Source of the DNA: an uncultured Phycisphaerales bacterium
GTDB taxonomy: Bacteria; Planctomycetota; B15-G4; CAYZWU01
Direction of reading: 5' to 3'
Length of the DNA stretch: 64,000 nt
Assembly: GCA_964482235.1 (NCBI GenBank)
Contig: CAYZWU010000028.1
Span: 6,645 to 70,644, forward strand
Part shown: in pieces, positions 16,836 to 22,153 of the stretch
How positions within the stretch are numbered: position 1 is the stretch's first letter
Layout of the letters: the number at the start of each line of letters is the position of its first letter
Made by a program: the position numbers and the translations under genes
The notes under the pieces: model-generated
Told to the model about the DNA's origin: nothing
Database searches by the model: none
What the model saw: only the letters and a program-made list of their open reading frames with translations

Positions 16836-19805
16836 CTACTCCAAGCCGGAGACGATCCCCCAGTCCGCGCTCTCGATAAACCAATCGTGCGGAACGAGGG
16901 TGAAGTCCTTCTGACTGCTCCCTCCGTCGATGGAGCAGACCACCAGGTCAACGGCGGCGTTGTGGATCCTGCGGCAGTAGAGGAGGCTCTCCCCGTCAGG
17001 AGAGACGACGCAAGGCCACACCGCATTCCCCTGATGGCTTCGGATGACTTTGGCGGCCTCGGCGTTCCCGGACTCGGCGTCCAGATCCCAGCGTACAATC
17101 TCGTTTACGATGCCCCCTTCCGGCAACGAGCGGCGGCGCGTGAGATACAGTGCCTTTCCCCAAGGCTCCCAGACCAGGGGGAAGGCATCGGCACGGCGGA
17201 TCGGATCCTCGATCTCGAGCAGATTCGCCATGGAATCGATTCGCACCGATTGGCCCGTGGCGGCATCCCAGACAAAGGCTTCTGCCGAATCGGAGGAGGG
17301 ATCCACCGCTGTCACGGCGGCCAGCCTCGCCCCGTCCGGCGCCATGGAGATGTGGAAACAATCCGGCACCTTGCCCCCTTCGGACCAGAATCGGATCTCC
17401 CCATCCAGATCGAGGACACGTATCTCCTCGCTGCCGCAGGACCCCTTGAAGGAGAAGGCGATCGAATGGGCGTCCAGCCACCTCAGGAGGCGGCAGCCGG
17501 ACTCCCTCGCGAAACTGGTCAGCTTGCGGCGATCCTCACCGGCAATCGACATGACCCAGATCTGAAACGATCGGCCGTCGAAACGGGTGAAGGCGATCTT
17601 TCTCCCGTCAGGGGAAAGCGTCGCGCTTCCCATGTCCCCGTCAAGGTCGGCCGTAAGGTTGGAGGCGCTTCTATTCCCAGGAGTGAGAGCAAAGATGTCG
17701 CTTTCGTCCTGCTGGAACGGCTTGGCGGCAATGACTATTTTCTCTAGCCTGACGCGAGCCCAGTCGCCCCCGGTGATCGGTCCCATGGCGGAATAAATGG
17801 GAGTCAACCGCCGTGTCTCGAGATCCAGCCTGCAGAAGCCGACTCCTTCTGCATCGGCTTTGGTCAGGAGCAGAGACGAGCCATCCGTGGAAAGGTCGTT
17901 GATCCTGACCTCACACCCTGGTGCGAATTGATAAACCGTCTCGAAGGAAACGGCGCCCGGAGAAATGGGAAAAGACCTCGAGACGATGGCGAAACTCCTG
18001 CCCGTGATGGGCAAATCGCGCGAGGCGGGGCCGGGGGCCATGTTCCGACACCAGTAGAACCGACTGCCGTCTGCACTGCAGACAGGATGGTGGTCGGTAT
18101 GATTGTCGTCTCCCTCGGACAGCAGAGGTTTAACTTCAGAAGGAAGGCCGTCCAGGCCGAGACTCGCCAGGTAGACATCGTAGGTCGGCGACCAGGTTCC
18201 TTCCTGCGCTGACAGCACCATGAACGCTCTGTCCGGTGAAAACGCGAAAGTAGTGGGGCAGGCATCGGAGTCCGAGGGTTCTGACAGCAACAGCTTGGAC
18301 TCCTTCTCGCGGATCTTGATGAAACGGATCTCGGCACTGTCGCTATCAGGATTGTTCGTGAAGTAGATCGTCTCATCATCGAACCACTTCAGATCAAAGG
18401 GAATGCCATGATCCATGTTGCTACCGATCTGCTGCCTCGATGTCCCATCCGAGCACATAATATAGATGGCAGGTACTCCGGAGGAATCGCTGATGAAGGC
18501 CATCTTGGTGCCGTCGGGCGAAACCCTCGGGGAAACGGCATCACCGGGATATTTCGAGGTCAGATTGATGAGCCCCGTCCCGTCGGGATTCATGCTCAGG
18601 ATATCGTACTCTCCCAAGTCGTCCGTTACGGCCGAGAAGATAATCTTCTCCCCCACGACCTCGGTCAGGGGGACATCCGAAACGGCGGGGATCCGGGCTG
18701 CCTGCTTTCCGAAAATCAGCACGACCAGGATGGTTGCCGAAGCCGCAAGACAGAGGGCGGCCAAACCGATCAGGAGGCGTGCCCGCCCGGCACGCGACGG
18801 CATTCCGGCAACAGGCGCGAGAGCCTGCTCGAACTCTCCTGCCGAGAAAAAACGGCCGCCGGCATCGACGGACATGGCCCGAGTCACGGCATCCGTAAAA
18901 AGGGCCGGAAGTCCGGCGCATCGTTTCTCGAGAGGCACCGGCGCCCCTTCGAGCACCTTGCGCCGCAGCTCGTGGTAATCGTTCGCCTCGAAGGGGAAAT
19001 CGCCGGACACCATCCAGTAGAGAAGAACGCCCAGGGCGTAGATATCCACCCTTGGCTCCATCAGGCTTCCGGGGATGAACTGCTCTGGCGCCATGACCAG
19101 CGGCGTGCCCGTCATGCCGCGCCTTCTCTTCAGGTCGGCCGGGCCGATCGAGTGGGCCAGGCCGAAGTCGAGAAGCACGACCCGGCCCTCGTCGGTGATC
19201 ATCACGTTCGTCGGCTTGAGATCGCGGTGGATGAGCCCCTTCGAGTGAAGAAGGGCCAATGCGCGGCAGAGGCTGACGCCGATGCGAACCGCTTCTTCGA
19301 CCGGGAAAGGGCCTTCCTGATCGACGATCTCGGCCAGAGTCCGGCCTTCGACCTTCTCCAGGCAGAGCCGAAGGTCCTCGCCGTCCTGGTCAACGGAGAG
19401 CATCCTCACGATGTTGGGATGGTCGAGGGAGGCCAGGGTTCGGGCTTCCCGGATGAAACGGCTTCTGTCCTGCTCGGTGAGCGGCGTCTCGCGATCGAGC
19501 ACCTTCAGAGCCACTTCCCGGCCGAGGAGCCTGTCGACGGCGCCATAGACCGTGCTGTATGCACCCCGCCCCAGCTCGCCCTTGATCTCGAATCCGGTCT
19601 CGATAGTCGAGACCGACTCACCCGGTTCCGCGTCCAGAAAATCGCCGTCTTCGGCGTGGATGCGTTTCATCAAAGCGAGGGTACGGAACGCCGCCGCCTC
19701 GCGGGCCGTAATTTTTCCTGCCCTGCTGAGCTTCTCCCACTCGAGGGGCTCGCCCTCGTCGATCGCCCTGGCAATATTCTCGCGGAACCTGGCGTCACGC
19801 GGCAT
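16836..19805 (-). CDS. Membrane Ser/Thr protein kinase with two extracytoplasmic TolB/PD40-like beta-propellers
   Basis: LGRGAY, VALK, HRDLKPTN, DFGLA, MAPE and DIYALG motifs; one TM (LLIGLAALCLAASATILVVLIFG); repeated SPDG motifs. Start re-assigned to ATG 19805 (GGAG RBS, overlapping the sigma factor 3' end). Confidence 0.92.
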   Translation of the reverse strand: MPRDARFRENIARAIDEGEPLEWEKLSRAGKITAREAAAFRTLALMKRIHAEDGDFLDAEPGESVSTIETGFEIKGELGRGAYSTVYGAVDRLLGREVALKVLDRETPLTEQDRSRFIREARTLASLDHPNIVRMLSVDQDGEDLRLCLEKVEGRTLAEIVDQEGPFPVEEAVRIGVSLCRALALLHSKGLIHRDLKPTNVMITDEGRVVLLDFGLAHSIGPADLKRRRGMTGTPLVMAPEQFIPGSLMEPRVDIYALGVLLYWMVSGDFPFEANDYHELRRKVLEGAPVPLEKRCAGLPALFTDAVTRAMSVDAGGRFFSAGEFEQALAPVAGMPSRAGRARLLIGLAALCLAASATILVVLIFGKQAARIPAVSDVPLTEVVGEKIIFSAVTDDLGEYDILSMNPDGTGLINLTSKYPGDAVSPRVSPDGTKMAFISDSSGVPAIYIMCSDGTSRQQIGSNMDHGIPFDLKWFDDETIYFTNNPDSDSAEIRFIKIREKESKLLLSEPSDSDACPTTFAFSPDRAFMVLSAQEGTWSPTYDVYLASLGLDGLPSEVKPLLSEGDDNHTDHHPVCSADGSRFYWCRNMAPGPASRDLPITGRSFAIVSRSFPISPGAVSFETVYQFAPGCEVRINDLSTDGSSLLLTKADAEGVGFCRLDLETRRLTPIYSAMGPITGGDWARVRLEKIVIAAKPFQQDESDIFALTPGNRSASNLTADLDGDMGSATLSPDGRKIAFTRFDGRSFQIWVMSIAGEDRRKLTSFARESGCRLLRWLDAHSIAFSFKGSCGSEEIRVLDLDGEIRFWSEGGKVPDCFHISMAPDGARLAAVTAVDPSSDSAEAFVWDAATGQSVRIDSMANLLEIEDPIRRADAFPLVWEPWGKALYLTRRRSLPEGGIVNEIVRWDLDAESGNAEAAKVIRSHQGNAVWPCVVSPDGESLLYCRRIHNAAVDLVVCSIDGGSSQKDFTLVPHDWFIESADWGIVSGLE

Positions 19806-20385
19806 CTCCGGCCATCTCCCTCCCGACGATCTCCATCGTCCTGCGTACATCCATCCTTGCCGCATCGGGCGACGGGTACTCGCACTCCTTGGCAATGATC
19901 CCGTACTCGAGGCCGAGTTCGATCCGCATCAGGAGTGAGTACCGTCTCCTCTCGGGAAGATTCCCTATCACGGCCTCGAAAGCCTCGAACTGCTCCCGGT
20001 CGAGGAGCCCTTCCAGCGGCGTGGCATCTGGCGAGGCCGGGGCGCACCAAGTCTCCTGCGGCAGCCTCTGCCCGGTCACACCGGACGAAAACCGGCGCCA
20101 CACATCGGCAAGGTGGTTGAGGGCGATCCGGCGCAGGTAGGCCCAGAAGGAGCCGATCCCCCGGTATTCGAACCGGTCGAGATAGGGCAGCGCCTTGATG
20201 CAGACATCCTGGACGATGTCCTGGGTCTCGGAAAGACCGCGGGCCGCCACGGGCAGCCTGGCCCGCAGGAAGAGATCGAGCTGCCTCCTGTACCGCTGAA
20301 GCAGATCGCCGCGCGCCTCCTGATCGCCCGCTCGAATCCGGTCGAGAAGATCGGCCGTTTCGAGGAGGATGGCGGACGGGTACAT
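19795..20385 (-). CDS. ECF-family RNA polymerase sigma factor
   Basis: Region 2 (DIVQDVCIKAL...SFWAYLRRIALNHLAD) and region 4 (LPERRRYSLLMRIELGLEYGIIA). ATG at 20385, with an alternative TTG at 20403. Confidence 0.9.
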   Translation of the reverse strand: MYPSAILLETADLLDRIRAGDQEARGDLLQRYRRQLDLFLRARLPVAARGLSETQDIVQDVCIKALPYLDRFEYRGIGSFWAYLRRIALNHLADVWRRFSSGVTGQRLPQETWCAPASPDATPLEGLLDREQFEAFEAVIGNLPERRRYSLLMRIELGLEYGIIAKECEYPSPDAARMDVRRTMEIVGREMAGDAA

Positions 20386-20848
20386 GGTTCTGTTGTCAAC
20401 CAATGCCGGTTCTCCAGACTTGTAACAGAACTCTTTGACGTCCCTGCAGACAGGTTGCTTTCCGGCAAAGAGGCCGCACCACTCGAATACGAATCAGATG
20501 TCAAGTGAAGATCAAGATCCCGAAAGAGAGATATTCGCTGTTTCTCTCTGATCAATGAGAAAAGGATACATATTTCCTGATACCTCGTCAACACAATCCA
20601 TGCCTGCCTGCGTGCGGACAGCCTTCCGGGACGGCTTTCCCTCTTCCCTCGAACACCGGGATCCCGAACCACGATTTCTGAAAAAAAGGGATTTTCCCTG
20701 TTCGGTCAGCGCCGAAAGGCCGGTTTCTCTAACTGTTCAGTTCGAATCCGACGAATCGCGATGCAGCCGCGCGGCACACGGAAAAGCGGAACGATTCAAC
20801 GAACAGGAAAACAGTTATGACGCACTGGATCTCAAAGGAGGAAAAGAG

Positions 20849-22153
20849 ATGTTCAAGCACAAAGGACTTTTGATTCTAATGACACTCGCCGCGGTTCTGC
20901 TCTGTCCCGCAGTGCAGGGGAACGACGAGGATGTTTCGGAGTATTTTCTGGTCGCGGCAGCCGGCAGCGATGCCGTCTACCGGGGAAACATCTACTCGGA
21001 CGATATAGTAAAGGTGATCGACGATGTGCACATCGCGACTCTGACCTATATCACATGGGGGCCTGACGGCAGGCTCTACATCGGCTGCTGGAACCATGGA
21101 AGCGGTCTCATTGCGGCCTATAAGCCGGTCGGTGAACTGCCATATGATGATTTCAACTTTATCGAGGATGCCGTTCCTGCCGGAGGCGTGATCGATCCTG
21201 AAGGACTTGAGTTCGGTCCAGACGGCAACCTTTATGTGTGCAACTACGGCGGCTCTGAAGTCAAAGTATTCGACGGCAGCACGGGGAGTTATCCCTTCGA
21301 CGAGCTACCTCCGATCAGTACGGGAAGCGATCCGCATGCCCTGAGATTCGGTCCCGACGGATATCTCTACGTTGGCTGCTGGGGCAACAGCAACGTGGAA
21401 GTCTACGATATTTCGAATCCTGTACCTGCACTCCATACTATCACGCCCGGGGAATCCGGCGCCTCGAAGCCTTCAGGCATCAACTTCAAACCGGACGGCA
21501 ACATTCTGGTCAGCTACTGGGGAGGCGACCTGGTCCTCGAGTACGAGGGAGTAGCTCCCTATAACTATGTCGGGATATTCACTGACACTCTGGGCACACC
21601 GTGCGACATCGCGATGGGACCGGATGACAACGTCTACATAACCGATTACGCGAACAATATCGTGGCTCAGTTCCCCATGACCGGCGGAAGCTCGACTCAC
21701 GAGTATACCGATCCGGGCCTTTTCGCCCCGGCAGGTCTGCTGTTCATCCCGAACATGCTGATCACGCTCTCGCGCGACATCGACCAGATTTCCCAGTCAG
21801 CCGGGGGTATGGTCACTTTCACCATCCAGGCCGGAGTGGACTTCGAGAGACGGCCCTTCTTCCTCCTCGGTAGCATGACCGGCACGCACCCAGGCACTAT
21901 TCTCCCGGGCGGCGCTGTCCTTCCCCTCGTCAGGGACCAGTTCTTCAACTACATACTGGATTACTGGAACTACCCTATCCTGGAAGACTTCAGGGGATAT
22001 CTCGACCTCGACGGCGCAGCCACGGCCCGTTTCATGCCGGGAGCGGGTGAATTGCCGGCGATTCTGATCGGTAGGAGTCTCTACTTCGCGTTCACCACGG
22101 AATCGCCCTACGACTACCAGTCGAACGTGGTCACCGTGGAAGTGACGAACTGA
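20849..22153 (+). CDS. Secreted NHL/Vgb-like beta-propeller protein with a C-terminal ~130-aa domain
   Basis: AAAGGAGG RBS then ATG 20849; Sec signal (LLILMTLAAVLLCPAVQG); repeats WGPDGRLY, FGPDGNLY, FGPDGYLY, FKPDGNIL and MGPDDNVY. Confidence 0.85.
   Translation: MFKHKGLLILMTLAAVLLCPAVQGNDEDVSEYFLVAAAGSDAVYRGNIYSDDIVKVIDDVHIATLTYITWGPDGRLYIGCWNHGSGLIAAYKPVGELPYDDFNFIEDAVPAGGVIDPEGLEFGPDGNLYVCNYGGSEVKVFDGSTGSYPFDELPPISTGSDPHALRFGPDGYLYVGCWGNSNVEVYDISNPVPALHTITPGESGASKPSGINFKPDGNILVSYWGGDLVLEYEGVAPYNYVGIFTDTLGTPCDIAMGPDDNVYITDYANNIVAQFPMTGGSSTHEYTDPGLFAPAGLLFIPNMLITLSRDIDQISQSAGGMVTFTIQAGVDFERRPFFLLGSMTGTHPGTILPGGAVLPLVRDQFFNYILDYWNYPILEDFRGYLDLDGAATARFMPGAGELPAILIGRSLYFAFTTESPYDYQSNVVTVEVTN

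Follow-up and report, generated by a model that had tools for sequence, protein, structure and literature searches.

An uncatalogued immunoglobulin-like domain at the C-terminus of many secreted proteins in Planctomycetota

The window analysed here is a 64,000 nt stretch of DNA from an uncultured Phycisphaerales bacterium (assembly GCA_964482235.1, contig CAYZWU010000028.1, positions 6,645–70,644). It contains a gene for a secreted NHL-propeller protein that ends in a separate domain, termed the tail below. The tail is a real, autonomous and uncatalogued domain. It represents a new family of a kind already known, i.e., a terminal tag domain common to secreted proteins. The features of the locus are collected in Table 1. 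The longest open frame of the gene begins at position 20555, and the 98 codons at 20555–20848, which encode no signal peptide, are upstream of the probable start and are probably not translated. The likely start is the ATG at position 20849, placed at the signal peptide; a 434-aa protein in the public collection (P0002) is identical to the window product from this ATG. Signal peptides were called here and below by a hydropathy heuristic and not by a trained predictor. The stop codon is a TGA at positions 22151–22153. In addition to the NHL match, the propeller region has partial matches to Vgb_lyase, SGL and Lactonase in Pfam and to the ScyE/ScyF NHL families in NCBIfam. A first-pass annotation had proposed a separate C-terminal unit behind the propeller at 21755–22153, and the translation agrees with the sequence quoted for it. 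The domain as defined by the profile begins four residues inside that start, represents residues ~307–434 and ends two residues short of the stop. The C-terminus of the protein reads ...YQSNVVTVEVTN and has no hydrophobic helix.

Table 1. Features of the tail-bearing gene and its neighbours, with positions in the window (ORF, open reading frame; HMM, hidden Markov model; Ig, immunoglobulin; ECF, extracytoplasmic function)
Feature	Positions	Strand	Basis
Gene for secreted NHL-propeller protein, 434 aa, with tail domain and TGA stop	20849..22153	+	ORF list, translation
Signal peptide MFKHKGLLILMTLAAVLLCPAVQG	20849..20920	+	Basic n-region, hydrophobic core, AVQG end
NHL-type beta-propeller region, residues 66–278	21044..21682	+	Pfam NHL, E = 4.8e-11
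Tail, uncatalogued ~125-aa Ig-like beta-sandwich, subtype A	21767..22150	+	HMM envelope 410–531 of the stop-to-stop ORF
ECF-type sigma factor-like neighbour, divergent, outside the domain	19795..20403	-	Sequence appearance only, no family scan
Ser/Thr protein kinase neighbour with C-terminal TolB-like propeller region	16836..19895	-	HRDLKPTN and DFG motifs in translation

The window tail has no match in Pfam or NCBIfam at E ≤ 1. When the 51 copies from the same genome (see below) are compared with both libraries at E ≤ 10, no family is matched by more than one member. A profile search of the sequences in the PDB gives chance-level matches only (E ≥ 0.2), and a full-text literature search found no description of the domain. 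The domain is thus unnamed, as had been proposed, and has no counterpart among known catalytic or carbohydrate-binding families.

Alignment of the 51 copies (alignment A1) shows a mean column identity of 42%. The near-invariant positions are G40, P43, G44, P54, D58, L80, D81, G84, A88, G103 and S120. The AlphaFold2 model computed from the paralogue alignment has a mean predicted local distance difference test score (pLDDT) of 97.5 and a predicted template modelling score (pTM) of 0.90. It displays an eight-stranded Ig-like beta-sandwich with one helix (residues 59–67) and a long structured loop (residues 38–58). The near-invariant residues are in the loops and not in the strands. Four loop motifs are present: S-G-T-x-P-G after strand 4, L-P-L-N-x-D before the helix, an L-D-x-x-G-x-A hairpin, and D-F-x-S-N before the last strand. 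A Foldseek comparison of the model with the PDB, which the first-pass annotation had suggested, gives generic Ig-like folds only, with TM scores ≤ 0.5 (Fab/antibody domains, PapD/DraB chaperones, MSP and intimin D0-D1), and no specific structural relative was found there.

The tail recurs much more often than chance would allow. A search with the 132-aa piece alone locates 48 sites in the 5.7-Mb source genome, with E values from 1e-87 to 7e-3, and three rounds of HMM search over all six-frame ORFs give 51 tail ORFs. A profile of these copies was compared with 1.84 billion representative proteins, the representatives of clusters at 50% identity. There are 8,076 matches at E ≤ 1e-3, 4,967 at E ≤ 1e-10 and 718 at E ≤ 1e-30. 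Every match with a named organism is from the Planctomycetota, and most are labelled "uncultured Phycisphaerales". In an even sample of the phylum, 79 of 401 genomes carry the tail; these are all 23 genomes of the window's order together with a patchy set of other families. The lineage restriction that had been proposed is therefore seen both in the named matches and in the genome sample. Counts per genome made with the HMM differ widely. The tail is amplified in some genomes, e.g., 51 copies in the source genome and at least 149 in genome G088 (149 of 150 scored candidates matched, and there were 351 first-look candidates), and the genomes of family f8 have only 1–2 copies each.

A maximum-likelihood tree of the tails reveals two old subtypes that have expanded in different lineages. 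Subtype A consists of 48 copies from the source genome, 7 from G088 and all 12 from family f8, and subtype B of 13 copies from G088 and 3 from the source genome. Homogenisation of tails within a genome was considered as a sign of co-evolution with a receptor and was rejected, as the tails do not cluster by genome. In G088 the subtype B tail genes are found in tandem arrays of 4–6 genes per contig (e.g., C77:1704-11502, C27:5192-20090 and C82:1830-6596). These arrays point to recent local amplification.

The tail is almost always terminal and is present once per protein. In the source genome, 48 of the 51 copies end 1–8 residues before the stop, and 36 of the 51 proteins finish in Pro with the consensus -V-x-I-x-P. 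This usual end is two residues past the last strand. Among the best 147 public representatives, the tail is single copy in 146 and terminal in 141, and there is one tandem pair. All 51 carriers in the source genome have a signal-peptide-like N-terminus, 14 of them after read-through of an in-frame TGA. The N-terminal parts of these carriers, i.e., the cargo, fall into 29 clusters without detectable mutual similarity and match 31 Pfam families. The most frequent are FG-GAP (7), Peptidase_C25 (5, four with propeptide) and Beta_helix (3); M14, M28 and S8 peptidases are found twice each, and single cases include C1, C13, C39_2, Endonuclease_1, Lcl_C, lectin, sortilin/BNR, NHL, cupredoxin and CARDB. 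In 20 carriers sampled from G088 the tail is C-terminal in every case. They represent 24 Pfam families, including GH78 rhamnosidase, GH18, M14, Kelch, DUF1028 with invasin, and C25. The first-pass annotation had held that similar tails end many unrelated secreted planctomycetal proteins, and the census of cargo in these two genomes bears this out: the tail is C-terminal in ~95% of proteins, is linked to a signal peptide in 51 of 51, and is found on 29 unrelated architectures and not with one propeller family only.

The tail has also been shuffled among cargo. For 35 of the 51 copies, the nearest tail in the genome is on an unrelated N-terminal region. The window tail itself shares 63–64% identity with its counterpart in a beta-helix/CARDB protein (contig 22); the pairing of the two in the tree is supported at 100/100.

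Approximately 5% of copies are not terminal (3 of the 51 proteins in the source genome and 6 of the 147 representatives). In these proteins the tail is directly after the signal peptide or internal, and is followed by a beta-helix, by a C39-like domain or by a conserved domain of 178 aa with WC[VL]R[GA]GF at its end. The three carriers in the source genome are at G000:C11:26206-27930 (L079), C24:1605-2615 (L094) and C10:141399-143090 (L072). Two of them share the 178-aa domain, which has no Pfam match, and one consists of signal peptide, tail and beta-helix. These architectures are maintained across genomes: a 564-aa protein of the source genome corresponds to P0151 (568 aa), and P0143 is also a counterpart. 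Such positions are compatible with a binding module, and would not be expected of a C-terminal translocation signal. The single copy in family f8 is in a syntenic protein of ~520 aa with DUF1028, Invasin_D3 and the tail, and this gene is flanked by housekeeping genes.

Homologues of the FG-GAP/VCBS cargo from Sedimentisphaerales and from unnamed metagenome sequences align through the repeats. In place of the tail they carry a PEP-CTERM segment (VPEP, hydrophobic helix, RRR), dockerin repeats or another small beta domain. Since homologous cargo bears PEP-CTERM or dockerin at this position, the tail occupies the slot of recognised anchors and docking modules.

A comparison with described systems shows that the tail belongs to none of the described sorting-domain families, although it shares properties with several of them. 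The C-terminal domain (CTD) of the type IX secretion system (T9SS) of Bacteroidota, which exists as type A (TIGR04183 / PF18962 Por_Secre_tail) and type B (TIGR04131), is likewise a small Ig-like C-terminal sandwich present once on signal-peptide proteins. It also serves tens to hundreds of cargo proteins per genome, among them peptidases, nucleases and adhesin-like repeats, and has distinct subtypes. However, neither the window tail nor the 51 paralogues match TIGR04183 / PF18962, there is no specific structural match, and the tail, which contains a helix and a long conserved loop, exceeds the CTD in length (~125 aa) and is N-terminal or internal in its ~5% of exceptions. The Planctomycetota are not known to possess a T9SS. 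PEP-CTERM (TIGR02595 / PF07589; exosortase PF09721) is found in the same slot on homologous FG-GAP/VCBS cargo in related lineages and is, like the tail, a lineage-specific tag common to many secreted proteins. It is a short motif (~25 aa) that includes a transmembrane helix and finishes in basic residues, in contrast to the tail, which is a folded, soluble domain of 125 aa. Membership was rejected: the tail does not display the combination of P-E-P motif, hydrophobic helix and basic cluster, it lacks a hydrophobic helix, and its consensus end is V-x-I-x-P. Exosortase, in addition, is absent from the source genome and statistically unrelated to the tail.

Dockerin (PF00404, cellulosome-type) is functionally the closest analogy, as a non-covalent docking tag. 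It is mostly C-terminal, sometimes N-terminal or internal, single copy, and present on many secreted enzymes. The tail is not a dockerin by the tests applied: no Pfam match to the duplicated, EF-hand-like Ca-binding segment is present, and the predicted fold is a beta-sandwich, in contrast to the Ca-binding helical repeats of ~70 aa that form dockerin. T9SS CTDs and PEP-CTERM do not tolerate an N-terminal or internal position, and docking and anchoring modules of the dockerin type do, which disfavours a strict C-terminal signal. The PPC domain (PF04151) is also a small C-terminal beta-sandwich on secreted peptidases, but it is unmatched in all 51 copies at E ≤ 10, and most tail carriers are not peptidases. 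No carbohydrate-binding module (CBM) or lectin model is matched, and the cargo is mainly peptidases, propellers and FG-GAP proteins with few glycosidases.

The reading preferred here, with a probability of roughly one half, is that the tail represents a non-catalytic, modular targeting or retention domain. Export would first proceed by the Sec pathway through the N-terminal signal peptide, after which the Ig-like beta-sandwich would fold on its own. The four conserved loop motifs described above would then bind one common partner in the envelope, which may be a polymer of the envelope or a protein acting as a receptor. In this way, hydrolases and binding proteins of many kinds would be held together at the cell surface or in the enlarged planctomycetal periplasm. 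We infer both the binding of an envelope component and the destination of the cargo. The source genome has no match to exosortase PF09721, so that this known sorting enzyme is not needed; it is also absent from 50 of the 79 tail-positive genomes.

Several results weigh against this reading. Clustering of the ORFs within 6 kb of the 51 loci shows no recurrent transporter, barrel or sortase; what recurs near the tail loci are Ser/Thr kinases, sigma factors, other secreted paralogues and sulfatases. The 12 loci from the low-copy f8 genomes display synteny with housekeeping genes only. Among tail-positive genomes, 29 of 79 have exosortase, compared with 139 of 322 among those that lack the tail (p = 0.31), i.e., there is no association, and exosortase was rejected both as a partner and as an alternative to the tail. 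Peptidase_C25, the family of the T9SS sortase PorU, is found in 53 of 79 tail-positive and 170 of 322 tail-negative genomes, which is a weak association (odds ratio 1.8, p = 0.02). Within the window's own order, 9 of the 23 genomes with the tail lack this family. A role of C25 as a PorU-like sortase was rejected on account of the weak association and its absence from many tail-positive genomes. No partner, receptor or ligand emerged from the neighbour and co-variation searches. Furthermore, the conserved loops would fit the binding of an external substrate equally well, and the model does not establish that they form one surface. In family f8, with 1–2 copies per genome, the domain may be just part of one enzyme.

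The first-pass annotation had viewed the tail as an export or surface-attachment tag that implies an undescribed pathway. The tag-like behaviour is supported. The data do not extend to an export or attachment role or to a dedicated pathway: no conserved machinery was found, and neither exosortase nor C25 co-varies with the tail. A further reading is that the tail is the signal recognised by a sorting pathway, so far undescribed, of Planctomycetota (Phycisphaerae and uncultured lineages allied to them), either for translocation across the outer membrane or for attachment at the surface or in the periplasm. It would serve at least 150 proteins in some genomes, a few percent of the proteome, and in this family dozens of secreted proteins with selenocysteine in vicinal Cys-Sec pairs would be among them (see below). 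This reading is tentative and is regarded as rather doubtful.

Three other explanations of the tail were weighed. The tail could be a true secretion signal resembling the T9SS CTD, with a dedicated translocon and a sortase-like peptidase that cleaves the tail and attaches the cargo to the surface. The position at the extreme C-terminus in ~95% of proteins, the single copy per protein, the usual V-x-I-x-P end (Pro in 36 of 51) and an Ig-like sandwich of CTD-like size are all in agreement with this. So are the copy numbers of 51 to at least 149 per genome, which are similar to T9SS cargo counts, and the two ancient subtypes, reminiscent of type A and type B CTDs. The cargo (C25 gingipain-like, M14, M28 and S8 peptidases, nuclease and adhesin-like repeats) also recalls the T9SS cargo generally known from Porphyromonas and Flavobacterium. 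However, T9SS CTD models are unmatched in sequence, and T9SS CTD structures are absent from the top 50 Foldseek matches. The SprA model TIGR04189 has no match in the source genome, a result to be read with the fact that 14 control genomes are equally silent. The N-terminal and internal copies precede folded domains, the C25 family is missing from the 9 genomes mentioned above, and conserved machinery was not found beside the tail genes. Genomes with a single copy are, in addition, unlikely to retain a dedicated system. A secretion signal of this type is considered unlikely.

Slightly less probable still is a substrate-binding or adhesion module, similar to a CBM, that directs enzymes to an external polymer or particle. 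Such a module needs no dedicated machinery, which is consistent with the negative searches. The beta-sandwich is of CBM-like size, the conserved Asp/Asn in the loops could bind Ca2+ or a sugar, the carriers include hydrolases (e.g., GH78, GH18 and peptidases), and the position is flexible in ~5% of proteins. Most of the cargo, however, is not carbohydrate-active (propellers, FG-GAP, peptidases, cupredoxin, nuclease), and no CBM or lectin family is matched. Binding modules are often repeated, whereas the tail is single copy in nearly all representatives, and at least 149 copies in one genome is well above what is usual for a single CBM family. The tail is also located where homologous cargo has PEP-CTERM anchors. 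The remaining explanation is a C-terminal pro-domain or intramolecular chaperone that aids folding or keeps enzymes inactive and is then removed. PPC domains are small C-terminal beta-sandwiches on secreted peptidases, and many tail carriers are peptidases (C25, M14, M28, S8, C1 and C13). This explanation is improbable in that more than half of the cargo is non-catalytic (FG-GAP, NHL, Kelch, beta-helix, lectin), PF04151 is unmatched, and one type of tail serves unrelated cargo where a chaperone would co-evolve with its own. The restriction to one tail per protein, the copy numbers and the range of cargo agree less well with the CBM-like and PPC-like explanations than with a targeting or retention domain.

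The genes next to the tail gene in the window encode a kinase and an ECF-type sigma factor-like protein. This trio (neighbours at 16836–20403 on the minus strand) and 12 other tail loci of the source genome have an adjacent kinase, often together with an ECF-type sigma factor. Kinases are near tail genes modestly more often than expected (10/54 within 3 kb, with 3.5 expected, p = 0.002), and sigma-factor homologues are within 6 kb of 3 tail loci, with 0.8 expected. The kinase adjacency suggests signal-controlled expression of a part of the secretome. It bears on regulation and not on sorting.

A separate observation concerns the 14 tail proteins of the source genome (of 51) that are interrupted by one in-frame TGA, with the signal peptide and conserved sequence upstream of it. 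Examples are G000:C45:19295-20623 (L051) and C85:2219-3166 (L095), and others are on contigs C23, C8, C5, C6, C7, C40, C100, C2 and C26. Five paralogues have the context ...C-T-C-[TGA]-G-G-x-S-D-G-G and five FG-GAP paralogues have ...S-Y-G-[TGA]-C-x-G-A-x-P-R-V-V-D-W, so that the recoded position in these two contexts adjoins a Cys (C-U-G or G-U-C). The four single contexts are Y-C-[TGA]-G, T-W-[TGA]-S-S-G-C, G-G-[TGA]-G and Y-G-[TGA]-T. TGA is the commonest ordinary stop in the genome, which argues for site-specific recoding and not for a changed genetic code. The 14 proteins are probably secreted selenoproteins. Full-length homologues of both families (~40 FG-GAP and 29 of the small family, with 28–64% identity) have exactly one in-frame TGA each. 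The source genome and four others of its family contain these homologues, and one additional FG-GAP match comes from another genome of the order. In a homologue with 44–50% identity, Cys is aligned to the TGA position.

Genes for selenocysteine incorporation are present in the source genome, i.e., one tRNA-Sec, two selA and three selB-like genes above the family cut-off (G000: C12:71855-71950, C12:73162-74352, C39:22437-23798, C19:40038-41150, C33:49093-50985 and C39:23870-24988). A duplicated machinery of this type is unusual and may be linked to an expanded secreted selenoproteome. A hairpin, UCCAC-N5-GUGGA, is found 17–20 nt past the TGA and is invariant in all five FG-GAP paralogues, one of which has differing loop codons; no compensatory changes are seen in the five. 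A 2026 review of prokaryotic selenoproteomes contains no mention of secreted, signal peptide, FG-GAP, VCBS or Planctomycetota.

The f8 genomes contain a second uncatalogued C-terminal tail. It is ~150 aa in length, Cys-rich and amplified, with the pattern CFGDG..CPCGN...FGDGLRC...YQVWYRN..FN.SN, and it has no Pfam or NCBIfam match. It is found at L104:1975-2934 (minus strand), L122, L125 and L130, e.g., on a C-type lectin protein. It was rejected as a homologue of the tail described here, with an hhalign probability of 0.2% for this "CPCGN" sequence.

The placement of proteins on and beyond the unusual planctomycetal envelope is largely unexplained, and the tail marks a large secretome there. 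It provides a list of co-sorted cargo, with 51 proteins in the source genome, at least 149 in G088 and at least 8,000 public clusters, and it is named in no domain library. The tail merits a domain model; a Pfam or NCBIfam entry would render thousands of "hypothetical proteins" interpretable. It also points to a group of probable secreted selenoproteins, and it is a compact handle for pull-downs and reporter fusions. If a dedicated partner does exist, the tail would represent a new protein-sorting system in a major environmental phylum.

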